Shown here piece after piece: positions 6,383 through 35,907 of a stretch of DNA of 64,000 nucleotides. The DNA is from an uncultured Bacillota bacterium (lineage in GTDB: Bacteria; Sysuimicrobiota; Sysuimicrobiia; Sysuimicrobiales; Segetimicrobiaceae). How positions within the stretch are numbered: the first letter of the stretch is position 1; every line of letters begins with the position of its first letter. Position numbers and translations under genes: made by a program. The notes under the pieces were generated by a model, which did no database searches, had not been told where the DNA came from, and worked only from the letters and a program-made list of their open reading frames with translations. The stretch is taken from positions 32,001-96,000 of the forward strand of contig CAWDRG010000010.1 in the NCBI GenBank assembly GCA_963804645.1, given 5' to 3'.

Positions 6383-6405
6383 CCGATGCGAGCGGACGCC
6401 CACTC

Positions 6406-7689
6406 GTGATCGATCTCAGACTGCTGCGCGAACAGCCGGACCTCTTCCGCGCCTCGATGACGAAGCGCGGGCTCGACCCCGGCCTTGTGGATCGGGTGCT
6501 CGCCCTCGACCGGACCCGGCGTGAGTACCTGCACCGCGTCGAGGAGCTGCGCGCGGCGCAGAAGCGGGCGTCCGAAGAGATTCCCCGCCTCAGCGGCGAG
6601 GCGCGCAGCACGCGGATCGACGAGATGAAGCGGCTCGCGGCGGAGATCAAGGCCGAGGAACCCGCCCTCGCCGCGACCGAAGCCACCCTGAACGCGGCGC
6701 TGGCACTGATCCCGAACCCGCCGCATCCGTCGGTTCCCGCGGGCGGCGCCGATCACAGCGAGGTCCTCCGCCTGGTGGGGGAGATCCCGGCGTTTCCGTT
6801 CGCGCCGCGGGATCACGTGGAGCTCGGCACGCGGCTCGGCCTCCTCGACATGGAGCGCGGCGCCAAGGTGTCGGGATCGCGGTTCTTCTTCCTGCGCGGG
6901 GACGGCGCCCTGCTCGAGCTGGCCCTGATCCGCTACGCGGTCGACCGGCTGCTCGCGGAGGGCTTCTCTCCGACGATCACCCCGGTGCTCGTCCGCCAGG
7001 AGCACCTCCTCAGCATGATGGGCGGCGCGCTACTCGACGACCAGATGGTATACCGCGTCGAAGGCGAGGACTTGGCGCTGACCGGCACCTCGGAGATGGC
7101 GCTCGGCGCCATGTACGCCGGCGAGATGCTGGACGACTCCGCGCTGCCGATCCGCCTCTGCGGCATCTCGACGTGCTTCCGCCGGGAGGCCGGGGCGCTC
7201 GGCAAGGACACGCGCGGGATCTTCCGGGTGCACCAGTTCGACAAGGTCGAGATGTTCTCGTACTGCCACCCCGACCGGTCGTGGGAGGAGCATGAGCATC
7301 TGCTCGACGTGGAGGAGCGGCTGTGGCAAACGCTCGGCCTGCCGTACCGCGTCGTCAACATCGCCGCCGGGGATCTCGGCGATCCCGCGGCGCGCAAGTT
7401 CGACATCGAGACGTGGATGCCGGGGCGCGGGGATTACGGGGAGACGCAGTCGTGCAGCAACTGCACCGACTTTCAGTCACGCGCGCTCAACATCCGCCTG
7501 CGGCGGCGCGAGCGGGGGACGGAGTTCGTGCACACGCTGAACGGCACGGCGCTCGCGGTGCCCCGGACGATCGTGGCGATCTTAGAGAACTACCAGCAGG
7601 AGGACGGCAGCGTGCGGGTCCCGGTGCCGCTCGTGCCGTACCTCGGGGGGCTGACCGAACTCCGTCCGCGCCCCGCGCCGGGCGGCTAG
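6406..7689 (+). CDS. serS: serine--tRNA ligase
   Basis: GTG start 6406 (IDLRLLRE); coiled-coil N-arm; GTSE, CFRREAG, RVHQFDKVE, SCSNCTDFQSR, HTLNGT, ILENYQ. Confidence 0.97.
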   Translation: MIDLRLLREQPDLFRASMTKRGLDPGLVDRVLALDRTRREYLHRVEELRAAQKRASEEIPRLSGEARSTRIDEMKRLAAEIKAEEPALAATEATLNAALALIPNPPHPSVPAGGADHSEVLRLVGEIPAFPFAPRDHVELGTRLGLLDMERGAKVSGSRFFFLRGDGALLELALIRYAVDRLLAEGFSPTITPVLVRQEHLLSMMGGALLDDQMVYRVEGEDLALTGTSEMALGAMYAGEMLDDSALPIRLCGISTCFRREAGALGKDTRGIFRVHQFDKVEMFSYCHPDRSWEEHEHLLDVEERLWQTLGLPYRVVNIAAGDLGDPAARKFDIETWMPGRGDYGETQSCSNCTDFQSRALNIRLRRRERGTEFVHTLNGTALAVPRTIVAILENYQQEDGSVRVPVPLVPYLGGLTELRPRPAPGG

Positions 7690-7728
7690 CGCGCGCGCCC
7701 GCCGCGCGCCATCACGATCGCGCGGGCG

Positions 7729-8346
7729 CTATCCCTCGGCCGCGACGCGCGGCATCCAGTCCGGCCGTCCCGCTTCGAACCGCACGAGCTCGGCCTCGTG
7801 CTGGAGCGTCAGGCCGATCGGATCGAGCCCGTTGAGCAGGCAGTGCCGCTTGAACGCATCGATCTCGAATCGGTCCCGCCGCCCGAACCCGTCGACGACC
7901 GTCTGGCCCTCGAGATCGACCGTCAGCTGGTACCCCTCGCGCGCGGATGCGGTCTCGAGGATCTCCCGGATCCGCGCCTCGGGGAGCACCACCGTCAAGA
8001 GACCGATCTGCGCCGCGTTGTTCGAGAAGATGTCCGCGAACGAGGGCGCGATCACCACCGAAAAGCCGTAGTCCTGGAGGGCCCACGCCGCGTGCTCCCG
8101 CGAGGAGCCGCAGCCGAAGTTGCGGCCCGCCACGAGCACCGACCCCTCCCGGTACTGCGGCCGGTTCAACACGAACTCGGGGTTCGGGGAGCCGTCGGGA
8201 AGATAGCGCAGGCTCTGGAACAGGACGTCGCCGTAGCCGGTGCGCTCGATGCGCTTGAGGAAGCGCGCGGGGATGATCAGATCCGTGTCCACGTCCGCGC
8301 GGTCGAAGGGCACCGCCACGCCGGTATGGTTGGTAAACGGTTTCAT
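7729..8346 (-). CDS. leuD: 3-isopropylmalate dehydratase small subunit
   Basis: ATG 8346 overlapping leuC stop; [45 protein letters not shown]. Confidence 0.96.
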
Positions 8347-9755
8347 CGCTCGCCCCCCCACGCACGGATGTCCACGAAGTGGCCGGCGATCGCCGCGGCG
8401 GCCGCCATCGGCGGGCTCACGAGGTGCGTCCGGCCCCCGGGCCCCTGCCGCCCCTCGAAGTTCCGGTTGGACGTCGACGCGCACCGCTCGCCCGGACCGA
8501 GAATGTCGGGGTTCATCCCGAGGCACATCGAACAGCCCGCCTCGCGCCACTCGAATCCCGCGCCGAGGAAGATCCGGTCGAGCCCCTCTCGCTCCGCCGC
8601 GGCCTTGACCTGCTGCGAGCCCGGCACGACGAGCGCCCGCACGGACGGGTTCACCTTCCGGCCGTCCGCGATGCGCGCGGCCGCCCGCAGATCCTCGATC
8701 CGCGCGTTGGTGCACGACCCGATGAACACTCGGTCGACCGCGATCTCCTGAATCGGCGTGCCCGGCCGCAGGGCCATGTACGCGAGCGCCCGCTCCACCG
8801 CGGCGCGCGCCCGCGGATCGGACTGCGCGTCCGGATCGGGCACGCGGCCCGTCACCGGCTCGGACTGCGACGGATTCGTGCCCCACGTCACGAACGGCTC
8901 GATCGTCTTCGCGTCCAGCTCGACCCGCGCGTCGTAGGACGCTCCCGGGTCGGTCGGGAGTCCCCGCCAATACTCCACGGCCCGCGCCCACGCCGCGCCA
9001 CGCGGCGCGTACGGCCGGCCCTCCGAGTACGCGAGCGTCGTGTCGTCCGGGGCGATGAGCCCGGCACGCGCCCCGCCCTCGATCGTCATGTTGCAGACCG
9101 TCATGCGCCCTTCCATGGAAAGCGCCCGGATCGTCGACCCGGTGTATTCGACCACGTGCCCCATGCCGCCGCCGACGCCGATCTTCCGGATGATGCCCAA
9201 GATCAGATCCTTCGGCGTGGTGCCCGGCGGGAGCGCGCCGTCCACGCGGATCTCCATCGTCTTCGGCCGCCGCTGGGGCAGCATCTGGGTCGCCAGCACG
9301 TGCTCCACCTCGGACGTGCCGATGCCGAACGCGAGCGCGCCGAGCGCCCCGTGGGTCGCCGTGTGACTGTCTCCGCACACGATCAGCATCCCCGGCAGCG
9401 TGAGCCCCAATTCCGGCCCGATGATGTGCACGATCCCCTGCCGCTGGCTCAGGAGGCCTTCGAGCCGCACCCCGAACTCCGGAGCGTTCCGCTCGAGCGC
9501 CTCGATCTGCTTCTTGCTGATCGGATCGGTGATCGGCTGCGTACGCGGCCAGGTCGGCACGTTGTGGTCGAGCACGGCAAACGTCAGGTCCGGGCGGCGC
9601 ACCCGCCGGTGATGGATCCGGAGCCCCTCGAACGCCTGCGGCGAGGTGACCTCGTGGACGAGGTGCATGTCCACGAACAGCAGGTCGGGCTCACCGTCGC
9701 CGCGGTGCACGACGTGCGCGTCCCAGATCTTTTCCACCAGTGTGCGAGGGGTCAC
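8343..9755 (-). CDS. leuC: 3-isopropylmalate dehydratase large subunit
   Basis: [58 protein letters not shown]. Confidence 0.97.
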
Positions 9756-28052: not shown

Positions 28053-30158
28053 ATGGCTAAAGCCCACGAACGTGAGGTCCCGACCGAGGTAACCGAGGCG
28101 GAGATCGCCGTCCACTGGCGGGAAGAAGAGCTCTACCGCCCCTCGCCCAAGTTCATCGCCCAGGCGAACCTGGCGGATCCCGCCGTCGTCGAGCGCTTCG
28201 CCCCCGAGCGCTTCCCCGAGTGCTTCCGCGAGTACGCGGACCTCCTGTCCTGGGACCGCTACTGGCACACGACGCTCGACACCTCCGACGCACCGTTCTG
28301 GAAATGGTTCGTCGGAGGCAAATTGAACGTGTCCTACAACTGCGTCGACCGCCATCTCGCGCAGTACAAGAACAAAGCCGCGTTCATCTTCGTCCCCGAG
28401 CCCGAGGACGCGCCCCACGAGGTGCTCACCTACCAGGAGCTGTACGTGCGCGTCAACGAGGTCGCGGCGCTGCTGCGGGACTTCGCGGGCCTCAAGGCCG
28501 GCGACCGCGTCACGCTGCATCTGCCGATGACGCCGGAGCTGCCGATCACGATGCTGGCGTGCGCGCGGCTCGGCGTCATCCACTCGGTTGTGTTCGGCGG
28601 CTTCAGCGGTGAAGCGTGCGGCCTCCGCGCCGCCGACTCCGGCAGCCGCGTGCTCATCACCATGGACGGCTACTACCGGAACGGCAAGCTGCTCGATCAC
28701 AAGGCGAACGCGGACATCGCGGTCGCCGCCGCCGCCAAAGAGGGCCAGACGATCGACAAGGTGCTGGTGTGGCGCCGGCTCCGGGACCGCGGCGCGTCGG
28801 AGACGCCGATGGTGGCGGGGCGCGACCACATCATGAACGACGTGCTCAAGGCGTACGCCGGCCGGCGCGTCGAGCCGGTCTCGATGGACGCGGAAGCGCC
28901 GCTGTTTCTCATGTACACGAGCGGGACGACCGGCCGGCCGAAGGGCTGCCAGCACCGCACCGGCGGCTACCTCGCGTACGTCGCGGGCACGTCCAAGTAC
29001 ATCCAGGACATCCACCCCACCGACGTGTACTGGTGCTTCGCCGACATCGGCTGGATCACGGGGCACTCGTACATCGTCTACGGGCCGCTGGCGCTCGCGG
29101 CCACTGGCGTCCTGTATGAAGGCGTGCCCACCTATCCCGACGCGGGCCGGCCGTGGCGGATCGCGCAGCAGCTCGACGTCAACATCTTCCACACCTCGCC
29201 CACGACGATCCGGATGCTGCGCAAGGTCGGCCCGGACGAACCCAAGAAGTACGCGTACCACTTCAAGTGCATGACGACGGTCGGCGAACCGATCGAGCCG
29301 GAGGCGTGGCGCTGGTACTATGACACGGTCGGCAAGGGCGAGGCCGCGATCACCGACACGTGGTGGCAGACGGAGAACGGCGGCTTTCTGATCAGCACGA
29401 AGCCGGCGCTCGATCCGATGAAGCCCGGCAGCGCCGGTCCCGCGATGCCCGGCATCTACCCGGTGATCTACGACGAAACCGGGAAGGAGATCCCGGCGGG
29501 TTCGAACAAGGCGGGCAACATCTGCATCCGCAACCCCTGGCCGGGGATCATGCAGACGATCTGGGGCGACCGCGACCGGTACGTCCGCCAGTACTTCGAG
29601 AAGTACAACCGCGCCAAGGCCAGCAAAGACTGGCGGGACTGGCCGTACTTCGCCGGGGACGGCGCGATGCAGGCCGCAGACGGCTACTACCGCATCCTCG
29701 GCCGCGTCGACGACGTGATCAACGTCGCGGGCCACCGCCTCGGCACGAAGGAGATCGAGTCCGCGTGCCTCACGGTCCCGGAGATCGCGGAGGCCGCCGT
29801 CGTGCCGGTGGTCGACGAACTCAGGGGCCGCGTCCCCGAAGTCTACGTCTCACTCCGGCCGGGCATCGCGCCGAGCCGCGAGATCGAGGAGAAGGTGGTG
29901 CGCGCGATCGAGACCTCGATCAGCAAGATCGCGCGGCCGAAGGCGGTGCACATCGTCGCCGACATGCCGAAGACCCGCTCGGGCAAGATCATGCGCCGGA
30001 TCCTCGCCGCGATCTCGAACACGATGGACACCGGCGACACCACGACGCTCGCGAACCCCGATATCGTCGAGCAGATCCGCCAGTCCGTGCAGGGCGCGGC
30101 GCCGGTCGCGACCAAGTCGGCGCCGGAGGACATCAAGCGGTTCGGGGACGAGCGGTAG
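28053..30158 (+). CDS. acs: acetate--CoA ligase (AMP-forming acetyl-CoA synthetase)
   Basis: WFVGGKLNVSYNCVDRH, YTSGTTGRPKG, ADIGWITGHSY, DTWWQTE, PKTRSGKIMRR. Confidence 0.95.
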   Translation: MAKAHEREVPTEVTEAEIAVHWREEELYRPSPKFIAQANLADPAVVERFAPERFPECFREYADLLSWDRYWHTTLDTSDAPFWKWFVGGKLNVSYNCVDRHLAQYKNKAAFIFVPEPEDAPHEVLTYQELYVRVNEVAALLRDFAGLKAGDRVTLHLPMTPELPITMLACARLGVIHSVVFGGFSGEACGLRAADSGSRVLITMDGYYRNGKLLDHKANADIAVAAAAKEGQTIDKVLVWRRLRDRGASETPMVAGRDHIMNDVLKAYAGRRVEPVSMDAEAPLFLMYTSGTTGRPKGCQHRTGGYLAYVAGTSKYIQDIHPTDVYWCFADIGWITGHSYIVYGPLALAATGVLYEGVPTYPDAGRPWRIAQQLDVNIFHTSPTTIRMLRKVGPDEPKKYAYHFKCMTTVGEPIEPEAWRWYYDTVGKGEAAITDTWWQTENGGFLISTKPALDPMKPGSAGPAMPGIYPVIYDETGKEIPAGSNKAGNICIRNPWPGIMQTIWGDRDRYVRQYFEKYNRAKASKDWRDWPYFAGDGAMQAADGYYRILGRVDDVINVAGHRLGTKEIESACLTVPEIAEAAVVPVVDELRGRVPEVYVSLRPGIAPSREIEEKVVRAIETSISKIARPKAVHIVADMPKTRSGKIMRRILAAISNTMDTGDTTTLANPDIVEQIRQSVQGAAPVATKSAPEDIKRFGDER

Positions 30159-30186
30159 CCGCCGGATCCGCAGCGGCCCGAGACAG

Positions 30187-30217
30187 CGGGGCGGGACGGC
30201 CTCGCCGTCCCGCCCCG
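30187..30217. terminator. perfect 14-bp hairpin between convergent genes
   Basis: CGGGGCGGGACGGC-CTC-GCCGTCCCGCCCCG. Confidence 0.6.
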
Positions 30218-30221
30218 ACCG

Positions 30222-30644
30222 TTACTTCTTCATGTTGCCGATTACGCTGTTCGTGGTCGCCTGCGTCGCTTTGAGGAGGTGGCTGAAGGTCTCCTCGAAC
30301 TGATCCTTCTGCTGCATCGCCTCCTGCAGCACCAGCTGGTCCTGCGTGGAGAGGTCCGCGAGCGACGAGATCTGCTGCATGAGGACCGACTGCGACACCC
30401 CGGGCGTGGCGGCGAGCTTCGCGACCGACGCGATCCGGCCGTTCAGCGTCCGGAACGCCGCGAGCTGTTTGCTGTCGATGGCCGTCATAGTCGCGTGGAG
30501 GCGCTCGAGCTGCGCAAGATTGGTCGACACGTCGTTCAGCGTCCGCAGGGTCGCCGAGGAGTCGACGGCGGCCCGGGATCCGGCGGCGAACGGCCCCAGG
30601 GCCGTCCCGATCGTAAGCAGCACCACCCCCAGCGATCTCAGCAT
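30222..30644 (-). CDS. secreted helical protein with T3SS needle (SctF)-like C-terminus, paralog B
   Basis: ATG 30644 after GGGAGG; signal peptide; ends LQEAMQQKDQFEETFSHLLKATQATTNSVIGNMKK. Confidence 0.75.
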   Translation of the reverse strand: MLRSLGVVLLTIGTALGPFAAGSRAAVDSSATLRTLNDVSTNLAQLERLHATMTAIDSKQLAAFRTLNGRIASVAKLAATPGVSQSVLMQQISSLADLSTQDQLVLQEAMQQKDQFEETFSHLLKATQATTNSVIGNMKK

Positions 30645-30672
30645 CGCAGCGCCTCCCATGCGACCCCGGCCG

Positions 30673-31140
30673 TCATTTCATGTTCGCGAGAATCCGTTTC
30701 ATCGTGTCATACCTCGACTTCAGCACGTTGCTCAGCACCGTGTACTGGCGCGAGTCGTTCTGCATCTGCTCCTGCAGCTGCAGGTACTGCAGATTGAAGC
30801 TCATCTGCGTCTGCTGCATCTGCTGGGTCGCCTGCATCAGATCGGTCGAGCTCCCCGAGGACCTTCCTGAGGACACCCCCGACGACGCGGCCAGCTTCGA
30901 GACCGACGCGACCTTGGCGCTCAGCGTCTCGTACAGCGTGGCCATCTTGCCGTGCAGCGCCATCATGTCCGCGTGCAGGCGGTCGAGCTGCGCGGCGGTG
31001 GCGGCCACGTCGTTGAATGCCTGCATCGCGTCCCGCTGCGCGGGCGAGGATTCCACGGCCCCTCCGGGCCCGGCGGCGAACGGAGCCAGGACCGTCCCGA
31101 CCGCCAGCAGCACGACCCCCAGCATCCTCACGATGCGCAT
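30673..31140 (-). CDS. secreted helical protein with T3SS needle (SctF)-like C-terminus, paralog A
   Basis: Signal peptide MRIVRMLGVVLLAVGTVLAPFAA; ends LQEQMQNDSRQYTVLSNVLKSRYDTMKRILANMK. Confidence 0.75.
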   Translation of the reverse strand: MRIVRMLGVVLLAVGTVLAPFAAGPGGAVESSPAQRDAMQAFNDVAATAAQLDRLHADMMALHGKMATLYETLSAKVASVSKLAASSGVSSGRSSGSSTDLMQATQQMQQTQMSFNLQYLQLQEQMQNDSRQYTVLSNVLKSRYDTMKRILANMK

Positions 31141-31203
31141 CGCCCATCCCCCCGGCGGGCCCGCCCGCCCCGTCCTGGTCCGGATGCCGGGCCCGGCCCG
31201 GGT

Positions 31204-32187
31204 CTAGGCCAAGCTCAGTTCGTCTCCGATGCCGCGCGCAAGCGCGTGCTCGTACGCGAGCTTGGCGCTCGCGACGTCCTCCACCGCGAGCCCGAGGGAC
31301 TCGAACAGCGTGATCTCGTCGGCCTCGGTCCGCCCGGGGTGGCCGCCCGCGAACACTTCGCCGATCTCCGCCCGGATGTGCGACGGGCTGAGCGCGTTCA
31401 TCCCGATCGGCACGACCAGATCGCCGGCCTCCGCGAGCGCGCTCTGCCGGCTGTCGACGAACACCCGGCACCGGCGGACGGCGTCGGTATCGAGCTCGCG
31501 CCAGTCCGGCAGGCACGCGCCGACGGCGTTGATGTGCATCCCCGGCTCGAGCCACTCGCCCTCAAGCACCGGGGTGCGGCTCGACGTCACGGTGCAGATC
31601 ACGTCGGCCCCGCGCACGGCGTCGCGCGGCGACCGCACCGCCGAGACGTTCAAGCCGAGCCGCTCCCGCATCTCTCCCGCGAACCGGTCGGCGCGCTCGG
31701 TCGTGCGGCTCCACACGCGCACGTCCTCGACCGGCCGCACCTCGCGCATCGCCTCGAGGTGGCTGTGCGCCTGCACGCCGGCGCCGAGCAGCGCGAGCGT
31801 GCGGCCCGTCCGCGCGGACAGCGCCGCCGTCGCCGCCGCGGACGTCGCCGCGGTCCGCATCTCCGTGATAAGCCGGCCGTCGAGCAGCGCGCGCAGCGCG
31901 CCGGTCTCGGCGTCGAGCAGCAGGATCGTCGCGAGGTGCGTCGGCAGATCGCGGGCGGCGTTTCCGGGGTACACGGTCACGGCCTTGAGCCCGACCGCCT
32001 CCTGCGCGACGAGGTAGGCCGGCATCACCGCCAGCAGCCCGCCGTGCGCGCTGACCGGCACGACCGGGCGCAGCGGCTGCACCGCGCCCCCCGTGCTGAA
32101 CGCGGCGAGGGTACGGTCCATCAGCGGGACGAGCTCCCGCATCGTCAGCAAATCTCTCAGGTGCGCTTCCCGCAGCAGCAGAGCCAT
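31204..32187 (-). CDS. ornithine cyclodeaminase / mu-crystallin family protein
   Basis: MPAY, GLKAVTVYPGN, ITEMRTAATS, GAGVQA, HINAVGA, FESLGLAVEDVA. Confidence 0.92.
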   Translation of the reverse strand: MALLLREAHLRDLLTMRELVPLMDRTLAAFSTGGAVQPLRPVVPVSAHGGLLAVMPAYLVAQEAVGLKAVTVYPGNAARDLPTHLATILLLDAETGALRALLDGRLITEMRTAATSAAATAALSARTGRTLALLGAGVQAHSHLEAMREVRPVEDVRVWSRTTERADRFAGEMRERLGLNVSAVRSPRDAVRGADVICTVTSSRTPVLEGEWLEPGMHINAVGACLPDWRELDTDAVRRCRVFVDSRQSALAEAGDLVVPIGMNALSPSHIRAEIGEVFAGGHPGRTEADEITLFESLGLAVEDVASAKLAYEHALARGIGDELSLA

Positions 32188-32277
32188 CGGCACGCCCTCC
32201 GGGACGTCGGTCTCGACACACGGTCCCCTCCGGAGATTCTGCCGCGTCCGGAGACACTCCCGCCGCCGCGCCGGTGC

Positions 32278-33377
<1,100 letters not shown>

Positions 33378-34894: not shown

Positions 34895-35446
34895 TCAGGA
34901 GTTGCCGATCAGAATCCCCGCGAGGAAGACGAGCCCGCCGCCGACCACGACCTGCAGCACGGACAGCCAGAAGCTCAGGCCGAAGTAGCGGTTCCGGATC
35001 ATTGCGATCGCGACCAGCTCGACACCGACCACCAGGTACGCGACGGCTAGCGCGACCCCGAGGCGCGGGATCAGAAACGGCAGCGCGTGCATCATGCCGC
35101 CGAGCAGGGTCGCCATCCCGGTGATCGCCCCCCGGATGACGGGATTGCCGCGCCCGGTCACTTCGCCGGTGTCGGACAGCGCCTCCGCGAAGCCCATGCT
35201 GATGCCGGCACCCACCGCGGCCGCGCTGCCCACGAGGAACGCCGTGTGGGGGACCCGCGTCGCGAACGCGGTCGCGAAGAGCGGCGCGAGCGTGGAGATC
35301 GACCCGTCCATCAGCCCGAGCAGCGCCGGCTGCACCACTCTGAGTAGGTACCGCGAGTGCACCTCGCCGGCGGTCGACACCGGAGGGTCTGGCGTCGTCG
35401 GCGCAGCCGCGACCGCCCCCGCCGCCCCCTCGTCGTCGGGCGTCAT
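34895..35446 (-). CDS. VIT1/CCC1 family metal (iron) transporter, MbfA C-terminal-domain-like
   Basis: VQPALLGLMDGSISTLAPLFA, AGISMGFAEALSD.G.VTGRG.P; ATG overlaps stop of Fur-family gene. Confidence 0.85.
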   Translation of the reverse strand: MTPDDEGAAGAVAAAPTTPDPPVSTAGEVHSRYLLRVVQPALLGLMDGSISTLAPLFATAFATRVPHTAFLVGSAAAVGAGISMGFAEALSDTGEVTGRGNPVIRGAITGMATLLGGMMHALPFLIPRLGVALAVAYLVVGVELVAIAMIRNRYFGLSFWLSVLQVVVGGGLVFLAGILIGNS

Positions 35447-35907
35447 CGCCCCCGCCCCGCCCGGCCCCGCCGGCACCGCGGGCACAGCCCGTGCAGCTCG
35501 AACCGGGCCGACCGCACCTGGAACCTCGCCCGGGTCGCGGCCGCGCGCTCGAGCTCACTGAGCCGCATCTCCGGCACGTCCACCACCGTTCCGCACCGCT
35601 CGCAGATCAGGTTCATGTGCGGCCCCACCCTCCCGTCGTATCGCCGGACCGGCCCGCCGATCTCGTGCACCAAGCCGAGCTCTGCAAAGAGGTCGAGCGT
35701 CGCGTACACCGTCGCCTGGCTGAGCCCCGGGAAGCGCCGCCGGACCTCCGCGTACACCGTCCGGGCGCTCGGATGCGTCGTCCGCCCCACGACCGCCTCG
35801 TAGATCGCCATGCGCTGCGGGGTCAGCCGCCCGCCGCGCGCGGCGAGCCGGCGGCGCAGATCGGCCGCGGGCGCGCCTATCTGCATCGGATCCTTATTAG
35901 TATTCAT
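35443..35907 (-). CDS. Fur-family transcriptional regulator (PerR-like); start 35907 or 35886
   Basis: RLTPQR, HPSA, LSQATVYATL, RYD, two CxxC (CERC, CPRC). Confidence 0.9.
   Translation of the reverse strand: MNTNKDPMQIGAPAADLRRRLAARGGRLTPQRMAIYEAVVGRTTHPSARTVYAEVRRRFPGLSQATVYATLDLFAELGLVHEIGGPVRRYDGRVGPHMNLICERCGTVVDVPEMRLSELERAAATRARFQVRSARFELHGLCPRCRRGRAGRGR

Follow-up and report, generated by a model that had tools for sequence, protein, structure and literature searches.

The window analysed here is a stretch of 64,000 nucleotides from contig CAWDRG010000010.1 of an uncultured Bacillota bacterium, and the subject of this report is a pair of small genes within it, called A and B, whose predicted products carry Sec-type N-termini and, most clearly in A, a C-terminal helix resembling that of SctF, the needle subunit of type III secretion systems (T3SSs). 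A first-pass annotation made from the DNA letters had described two adjacent, co-oriented genes, and this description proved sound, as both open reading frames (ORFs) are present on the minus strand (Table 1) and encode paralogs with 40% identity (E 5e-29). Gene B can be read from an upstream ATG at 30659, giving 145 amino acids (aa), or from the ATG at 30644, giving 140 aa. The shorter form is the likely one because of the spacing of the GGGAGG motif, because the B ortholog on a related metagenome contig (L108) is conserved only from the Met at 30644 onward, and because public gene-caller collections contain the exact 140-aa protein. The exact A protein is also found in those collections, where it is unnamed. 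A and B are 28 nt apart, a spacing that makes a single transcript covering both genes probable.

Table 1. Features of the A/B locus, in window coordinates (AF2, AlphaFold2; HMM, hidden Markov model; pLDDT, predicted local distance difference test)
Feature	Positions	Strand	Description and basis
Gene A	30673..31140	minus	155 aa and TGA stop; from ORF list and sequence; canonical member of the C-terminal-helix family
A, predicted Sec-type signal, residues 1-28	31057..31140	minus	MRIVR, 18-residue hydrophobic core, PGGA; putative cleavage after A28, from sequence
A, predicted N-terminal long helix, residues 33-88	30877..31044	minus	AF2, block pLDDT 69-75
A, predicted Gly/Ser-rich loop, residues 89-96	30853..30876	minus	AF2 and family alignment A1
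A, conserved C-terminal helix domain, residues 97-155 (...MSFNLQYLQLQEQMQNDSRQYTVLSNVLKSRYDTMKRILANMK)	30676..30852	minus	HMM 104.7 bits; last 21 residues align with SctF C-terminus
Shine-Dalgarno GGGAGG of B	30652..30657	minus	7 nt ahead of the ATG at 30644; from sequence
Gene B	30222..30644	minus	140 aa and TAA stop; diverged paralog of A
B, predicted Sec-type signal, residues 1-25	30570..30644	minus	MLR, hydrophobic core, GSRA; putative cleavage, from sequence
B, C-terminal domain, last 56 residues	30225..30392	minus	3-residue deletion, lacks the FNLQYLQLQ core, ends NMKK
G+C-rich hairpin	30183..30222		perfect core stem of 14 bp; lies where B and the acetyl-CoA synthetase gene converge, between their stops
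Segment carrying B and A (1.07 kb)	30150..31216		insertion or deletion relative to three congeneric genomes

The conserved part of these proteins is their C-terminal end. A word-indexed search returned 78 homologs of A, and a domain HMM scan of 1.84 billion cluster representatives (50% identity clusters) returned 2,543 sequences at E <= 0.001, with 1,240 at E <= 1e-10. Only about the last 58 residues are shared across the family, the sequence upstream of them being variable, and the domain runs to the very end of the protein: it finishes exactly at the final residue in 149 of the 150 best representatives, and it lies at the C-terminus or at most 5 residues from it in the 66 fetched loci with a match. 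The domain consensus is LMQATQQMQETQMSFNLQYLQLQ..MQNENRQFT.VSNIMKTKHDT.KN.I.NI(K/R), the core signature of the family is FNLQYLxLQ...SN(I/V)(M/L)K.(K/R)(H/Y)D......N(I/M/L)(K/R/H), and L120, Q123, S137, K141 and N153 (A numbering) are invariant. Gene B is recognised by the same HMM with 60.4 bits (E 2.3e-16). No Pfam or NCBIfam model covers A or B at a meaningful level, and the family is unnamed.

The first-pass annotation had likened the tail of A to that of Salmonella PrgI, and the likeness to SctF is more than a coincidence. Using EprI and EscF sequences from E. coli O157:H7 Sakai, the needle register was re-tested with EprI, and a hand count from the last residue gave 8 identical positions out of 34 between A and EprI (N, I, D, K, V, N, S and Q). 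The signature S-N-x-x-K...D...I-x-x-N-x-(R/K), reaching the last residue, is present in A. B carries it only in part, with SH for SN, Q for D and an extra terminal K, so that the claim of the same spacing in B falls: its end at ...NMKK puts the register off by one and makes the match a weaker one. An hhalign comparison of a 49-sequence domain alignment with a 45-sequence SctF alignment reproduced this register and gave a score of 23.8 (P 3.5e-4) over 21 columns, with both alignments ending at their last residue, while the reversed target scored 8.5 and 100 column shuffles reached a maximum of 16.8, none attaining the observed score. This test is limited because the SctF alignment, built from homologs of EprI, is dominated by a single T3SS clade; scanning 400 genomes from a single class for canonical SctF yielded one sub-threshold match and did not help to broaden the set.

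Further leads point in the same direction. In a myxobacterial T3SS locus, a family member of 187 aa matches a single Pfam model, PF09392 (T3SS_needle_F; E 0.0024). Its residues 128-186 fall on positions 16-71 of the 71 in the model, and the match scores 18.5 bits where the cut-off is 29.4. In a protein-language-model atlas, the named clusters nearest to A are two T3SS-needle clusters (0.86 and 0.85), which is a lead only. DUF5407 (PF17401), which is listed together with needle clusters in that atlas, was considered and rejected, as nothing in the whole genome matches it at E <= 10 and it is not listed for A or B; a literature search on DUF5407 found nothing. Taken at sequence level, this evidence makes it likely that the C-terminal helix of the family is remotely homologous to that of SctF.

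Two other ORFs with needle-like features were noted. One lies in an Eremiobacterota metagenome-assembled genome (MAG) (L036:8328-8603, minus), convergent to a member of the family without a signal peptide. It is needle-sized, with 92 aa in all and 76 aa from the first Met, and matches the family HMM at 6e-7, TIGR02105 at E 0.0012 (19.2 bits against a cut-off of 41.7) and PF09392 at E 0.035. No T3SS gene was found within the 9 neighbours scanned, and it looks like an orphan SctF-like gene outside a T3SS locus. The other is a third ORF in the source genome (C2:70931-71425, minus; L005:6935-7426), up to 164 aa long with a needle-like end (...SEMASMQLQMLMDLRSKLLQTASDIEKSVTDTNNAIVGNIK), which lacks a signal peptide, adjoins peptide ABC-transporter-like genes and resembles the 92-aa ORF. 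Its match to the family HMM is weak (E 0.1), and Pfam and NCBIfam gave no meaningful match.

A one-genome-per-species scan found 67 loci with a family member, and 22 of these, in Anaeromyxobacter and related Myxococcota, encode a member without a signal peptide, in which the N-terminal region is conserved and a Gly/Ser/Ala linker is present. This member directly precedes a 115-aa gene. In one Anaeromyxobacter locus (L045) the order is member, 115-aa SctI-like gene, SctJ (YscJ_FliF, 3.5e-21), SctQ, SctR, SctT and SctU, and SctV belongs to the same locus as the member in the complete genome of A. oryzae. The 115-aa gene resembles the inner rod SctI, judging from an hhalign comparison with EprJ (P 0.0066) and from its counterpart in a larger genome, which matches PF17001 (E 0.019). 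A second group of loci, in MAGs labelled Bdellovibrionales or Myxococcota, has a 111-aa ORF, the member and a 138-aa tetratricopeptide repeat (TPR) protein that matches the T3SS chaperone models LcrH/SycD (1.4e-9), SctY and CdsG, all under cut-off. In Pseudomonas and Yersinia, the needle gene lies with its two chaperones in that same order.

Within the order containing Anaeromyxobacter, a family match is present in 55 of 101 sampled genomes. Five large Myxococcales genomes (9-10 Mb) carry two SctV genes each, and a member lies 6.5 kb from one SctV in all five and 19-22 kb from the other in four, the fifth having the pieces on different contigs. The locus of a 9.8-Mb Myxococcales genome reads, in order, a YscE-sized ORF, the member, a TPR gene, an ORF, the SctI-like gene matching PF17001, SctJ, ORFs of 705, 225 and 437 aa, a YscO-like gene, a FliK/SctP-like gene (Flg_hook, 31.0 bits, above cut-off), a 460-aa ORF and then the export-gate genes, followed by three identical tandem 72-aa ORFs. 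The names SctL, SctN, SctQ and SctRSTU for ORFs of this locus that were not scanned are a reading from size and order only. The triplicate (L104:1520-2619; G554:C1, ~8927820-8928920) is 1.4-2.5 kb from SctV, and each 72-aa ORF is read as two helices joined by a PEEQ turn, the second of which ends ...MAAVNNLK, its sole Pfam row being PF09392 (E 0.14) over the whole length.

This genomic context is stronger evidence for the link to SctF than the sequence comparisons, and it comes from systems of the kind held to have no needle. Myxobacterial systems were described as lacking SctF, and an 'intermediate without needle' scenario was built on that absence (Abby and Rocha 2012, PMC3459982, in the portions of the article available). 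The available portions of a 2023 review (PMC10433427) and a 2025 paper (PMC12075869) likewise describe the Myxococcus T3SS* as having no needle homolog. Neither the family nor the triplicated 72-aa SctF-like gene is mentioned in the available text of these three articles, a set that does not include the primary 2022 T3SS* paper and its supplements. The triplicate and the FliK/SctP-like ruler gene sit oddly with the 'needle-less' label, and needle-like genes have gone unrecognised in loci held to be needle-less.

The members with a Sec-type signal, to which A and B belong, have no such company. In A and B the domain follows that signal and a different N-terminal helix. The first-pass annotation had stated that the window contains no T3SS or flagellar gene, which holds for the 45 window proteins scanned and not for the organism, whose genome (5.3 Mb, 96.8% complete) has one FHIPEP gene within a full flagellar locus on another contig. 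As that locus carries L- and P-ring genes, the organism is a flagellated diderm. Of 10 other genomes that carry the family, 4 lack FHIPEP altogether (Algoriphagus terrigena, a Chitinophagaceae MAG, a beta-proteobacterial MAG and an Acidiferrales MAG). Because the sole FHIPEP of the source genome is flagellar and these four carriers have none, the window copies cannot depend on an injectisome. At 12 signal-form loci, none of 70 neighbour proteins matched an injectisome family. The signal form is thus independent of the T3SS and the signal-less branch is linked to it. The first-pass annotation had named homologs that always lie in complete T3SS loci as an outcome that would refute it, and the result is in its favour: some Myxococcales members lie there, and the signal-peptide forms do not.

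Only one of the 12 signal-form loci has a flagellar neighbour. It belongs to a Vulcanimicrobiota MAG (L011), in which the signal-form gene is divergent to FlgF/FlgG and a sigma factor (6405-7912, minus; 7986-8414, plus). The idea that the signal form has a conserved partner gene was rejected, since no neighbour cluster other than the family itself and its antisense ORF is common to more than 3 of 31 loci. Genes of the VIT family (iron/manganese transporters) were seen a few kb from the window pair (34898-35485, minus) and near the Anaeromyxobacter member (L045:4888-6000); their proximity to family members in the window and in Anaeromyxobacter T3SS loci is probably a coincidence.

The Sec-type N-termini described by the first-pass annotation are borne out at the level of sequence pattern. 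Both A and B have a short basic n-region, a hydrophobic core (h-region) of 17-18 residues and a c-region with small residues at -3 and -1 of the putative cleavage sites (PGGA|VES in A and GSRA|AVD in B; GGA|V and SRA|A). Relatives from Acidobacteriota, Eremiobacterota, Chloroflexota, Bacteroidota and others (five or more phyla) show this n/h/c arrangement too, with sequences that are unrelated, and many signal-form relatives have canonical A-x-A sites, Bacteroidota examples being AMA|Q and LVA|Q. In the AF2 model, the signal region of A has a helix at residues 3-17 with low pLDDT. Sec export and signal cleavage of A and B are therefore best regarded as probable predictions. A literature search on Sec-dependent needle or SctF signal peptides gave nothing relevant in titles and abstract openings.

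An AF2 model of A, computed from a 33-sequence alignment, consists of a helix (residues 33-88), the Gly/Ser loop and a second helix (97-154), with a mean pLDDT of 67 and a predicted template modelling score (pTM) of 0.35. In fold searches, it resembles long antiparallel helical hairpins. A Foldseek search against the Protein Data Bank (PDB) returned nothing at E <= 0.001, its top matches being the colicin E3 receptor domain, LXG and Vipp1. These searches do not discriminate between candidates, because the long helical hairpin is too common a fold. A complex prediction with four copies of A residues 31-155 (score 0.25, mark 0.42) returned no verdict and is evidence neither way.

The pair is flanked by a convergent acetyl-CoA synthetase gene (acs) on one side and an ornithine-cyclodeaminase-family gene (ocd) on the other. 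In three congeners (G411, G413 and G416) a gap of 19-39 bases separates the end of the acs match from the start of the ocd match, and because acs and ocd abut in these genomes the segment carrying B and A is an insertion or a deletion. A fourth congener (G414; L091, C1:71800-75500) has an A ortholog, no B and about 2.8 kb of other DNA at the junction, which is therefore a variable spot in the genus; the extra DNA of G414 includes an ORF of 405 aa and about 1 kb of repetitive, proline-rich sequence. The related contig L108 has orthologs of A (85% identity) and B (77%) side by side between the same flanks. Compared with L108, the ratio of nonsynonymous to synonymous substitution rates (dN/dS) is 0.26 for A, 0.11 for its C-terminal 58 codons and 0.58 for B, the last 40 residues of B being identical. 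More widely the family is patchy, occurring in 3 of 60 relatives, none of which has two copies, and the tandem A-B pair is a rarity found only in the lineage of the window. The two-subunit idea of the first-pass annotation depends on this uncommon arrangement, and a second family match was found in only 1 of 66 fetched loci, namely the one with the convergent 92-aa SctF-like ORF.

The hairpin between the convergent stops of acs and B has a predicted RNA folding energy of -46.4 kcal/mol (z -3.99), with an equally stable fold in none of 200 shuffles, and is probably a terminator without a U-tract; a scan for consensus promoters and terminators found nothing. Very long ORFs (up to 769 aa; for example 30952-33261, plus) run antisense to real genes, as is typical of DNA with 69% G+C, and gene calling based on third-codon-position G+C (GC3) favours one such antisense ORF over gene A, ocd and tadA. 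The DNA sequencing runs containing the pair are peat metagenomes.

A tree built from the 64 columns of the domain has poor resolution and mixes phyla and both forms, with well-supported branches that force at least two switches between the signal-less and signal forms. The first-pass annotation had spoken of a 'domesticated' needle fold, a direction of evolution that this tree does not establish. Members on two contigs binned as archaeal (L012 and L070, from Thermoplasmata and Thorarchaeota MAGs) are nested among bacterial sequences in the tree, as expected from either mis-binning or gene transfer. A phage origin of the family was rejected, as 2.9 million viral contigs contained only 6 loci with the family, the best PHROG match was no better than E 2e-4, and one of the loci is probably bacterial. 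That locus (L092:4884-6599, on a 235-kb IMG/VR contig) holds three genes in tandem, for a 273-aa protein whose end is needle-like (...MISNVLKTMHDMSMTSIRNIK), a family member without a signal peptide and an SctI-like protein, and is probably a bacterial T3SS locus misfiled as viral.

Among known systems, the closest comparison is with SctF itself (PF09392; TIGR02105; EprI, EscF, PrgI and MxiH), which like the predicted form of A is a helix-loop-helix hairpin whose C-terminal helix runs to the last residue, the two sharing S-N-x-x-K-x-x-x-D-x-x-x-x-I-x-x-N-x-(R/K). The position of the SctF gene before SctI and SctJ, with a TPR chaperone next door, is a feature of the signal-less members and not of A and B. 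In contrast to SctF (about 70-90 aa), A and B have Sec-type signals, no T3SS context, helices of about 55 rather than 30-38 residues and a Gly/Ser loop in place of P-x-x-P; they pass no curated threshold, and a polymer of A/B is only proposed. By any curated test, then, A and B are not SctF and differ from it in size, turn and export route. Most likely they share its C-terminal helix by descent, and they may work like it. The interpretation of the first-pass annotation, a self-assembling filament or channel of two Sec-exported subunits derived from a needle fold, is supported in part.

Three further systems were compared. EspA (PF03433), the filament protein of enteropathogenic E. coli, has about 190 aa and a long C-terminal coiled-coil helix that drives polymerisation, and is a T3SS substrate with its own chaperone. 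Its size is similar to that of signal-less members (137-190 aa), and the 76-aa ORF of L036 has EspA-like atlas neighbours at 0.85, which is only a lead, but no alignment or profile match between EspA and the family was obtained. SctI (PF17001), the inner rod, is the second axial protein and has a related C-terminal helix; it is encoded right after the member in myxobacterial loci, and the tandem A-B recalls SctF followed by SctI. B, however, is a paralog of A and not a relative of SctI, hhalign of the family domain against EprJ giving P 0.53. Finally, the myxobacterial 'needle-less' T3SS* (MXAN_2434-2464 type) encodes the signal-less branch of the family.

The explanation we propose for A and B, which we hold to be about evenly balanced between right and wrong, is that they form a co-transcribed pair of Sec-exported helical hairpins that self-associate through a tail remotely related to the polymerisation helix of SctF. 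SecYEG would export the unfolded chains, and such export would take the place of both the T3SS signal and the cytoplasmic chaperones that hold off polymerisation. Signal peptidase would then remove about 25-28 residues, leaving a mature hairpin of about 115-127 residues to fold in the periplasm (or envelope), where its conserved C-terminal helix could drive assembly of an oligomer or filament. B might act as a diverged minor or modulating partner of A. The self-assembly, as well as any interaction of A with B, is speculative and is drawn from analogy with needles.

Several results weigh against this proposal. All family matches to needle models fall under the curated cut-offs, and A and B themselves pass no threshold against a needle family: PF09392 is unlisted for both at E <= 10, a PF09392 scan of the genome misses both, and NCBIfam has no needle row. 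PDB searches by sequence found no solved needle, phmmer returning nothing and the family profile one chance row (E 0.96). Fold searches gave only generic long helical hairpins, with a best Z of 11.2 from VIA-align against 48,161 chains, which is below the meaningful level for long helices, and the AF2 model itself is of only moderate quality, as its pTM indicates. Mature A (about 127 aa, its two predicted helices having 56 and 58 residues) would be a hairpin about 50% longer than a needle subunit and has its Gly/Ser loop where needles have the P-x-x-P turn. The most conserved motif is missing from B, which also evolves faster. Sorted by a crude hydropathy rule, 63 of the 150 best representatives are signal-like at the N-terminus, 3 have the N-terminal motif of the T3SS-linked branch, 4 lack an initial Met, and the remaining 80 have other N-termini with no hydrophobic segment, so that the family is not a simple dichotomy of T3SS and Sec. 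There were no RNA runs among the sequencing runs listed for the pair.

Alternatively, A and B may be generic periplasmic coiled-coil proteins, such as a Spy/CpxP-like chaperone or a structural spacer, with a likeness to SctF that arose by convergence of Gln/Asn-rich amphipathic helices and has no bearing on needle mechanism. Proteins of the Spy/CpxP type (PF13801 and relatives) are Sec-exported, have about 130-160 aa and form long periplasmic helical hairpins in diderms. The failure to pass any family threshold, the commonness of the hairpin fold and an hhalign probability of just 37% over the 21 columns, itself a point against our proposal, all suit this explanation, as does a weak Pfam row for A with the CpxP-like Metal_resist family (residues 7-111). 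That row is at chance level (E 0.49), and A lacks the LTXXQ motif and has no Spy/CpxP protein among the fold matches listed. A convergent coiled coil moreover leaves unexplained why the domain sits at the SctF position before SctI and SctJ in Myxococcales, why one member matches PF09392 alone and over 56 of 71 model positions, and why none of 100 shuffles reproduces a match in exact register with the last residue; we regard it as unlikely. A different objection concerns the N-terminus, as the hydrophobic segment could remain uncleaved and tether A and B to the inner membrane as a type II anchor, with the hairpin in the periplasm serving as scaffold or sensor. At 18 residues in A the core is long, A, B and the L108 and G414 orthologs have its sequence LGVVLL..GT.L.PFAAG in common, neither protein has a canonical A-x-A site, and AF2 models the segment as a helix, features that count against cleavage. 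They are offset by the small residues at -3 and -1 and the canonical sites of the Bacteroidota relatives, and the N-terminal similarity may reflect only recent duplication, so that an anchor seems quite improbable.

In another explanation, a prey bacterium might export a mimic of the axial helix as a periplasmic decoy, which would cap or poison the T3SS-like predation machine of Myxococcota or Bdellovibrionota and so defend the cell against predators. Signal-less members do occur in T3SS loci of predatory lineages, and signal forms occur in unrelated soil bacteria with a patchy distribution (3 of 60 relatives carry the family); together with the insertion at the window locus and a tree that mixes phyla and forms, this is typical of accessory defence genes. 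The decoy idea is nevertheless wholly inferential, signal forms also occur in a Bdellovibrionales MAG (L025), and the myxobacterial T3SS* is not known to insert a filament into prey in the available portions of PMC12075869 and PMC10433427; we consider it very unlikely. Least probable of all, to the point of being hardly credible, is that the flagellar export apparatus encoded in this genome uses A and B as substrates or accessories. The full flagellar locus and the one signal-form gene beside FlgF/FlgG speak for it, and against it stand the four carriers without FHIPEP and the placing of the window genes on another contig among metabolic genes. We also know of no flagellar substrate that uses a Sec-type N-terminus. 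A bolder form of our own proposal, which we think rather doubtful, takes the family as an overlooked axial (needle- or rod-like) subunit of the myxobacterial T3SS*, whose helix would have been put repeatedly behind Sec signals in many soil phyla to give the first needle-type polymer without a type III machine, as a periplasmic filament or a predator decoy.

Needle subunits are regarded as proteins found solely as cargo of type III secretion machines, and as requiring dedicated chaperones because they polymerise spontaneously. If the proposal for A and B is true, a widespread Sec-exported branch in genomes without a type III machine would mean that the self-assembling module can be detached from its machine, and the pair would provide a two-gene system for the study of needle-type assembly. 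The 'pre-needle' evolutionary reading of the myxobacterial T3SS* rests, in the available portions of its source, on the absence of a needle homolog (PMC3459982). If the family genes found in these loci do encode an axial structure, both the passage of effectors across the periplasm in this predation machine and the scenario for the origin of the injectisome would become testable.

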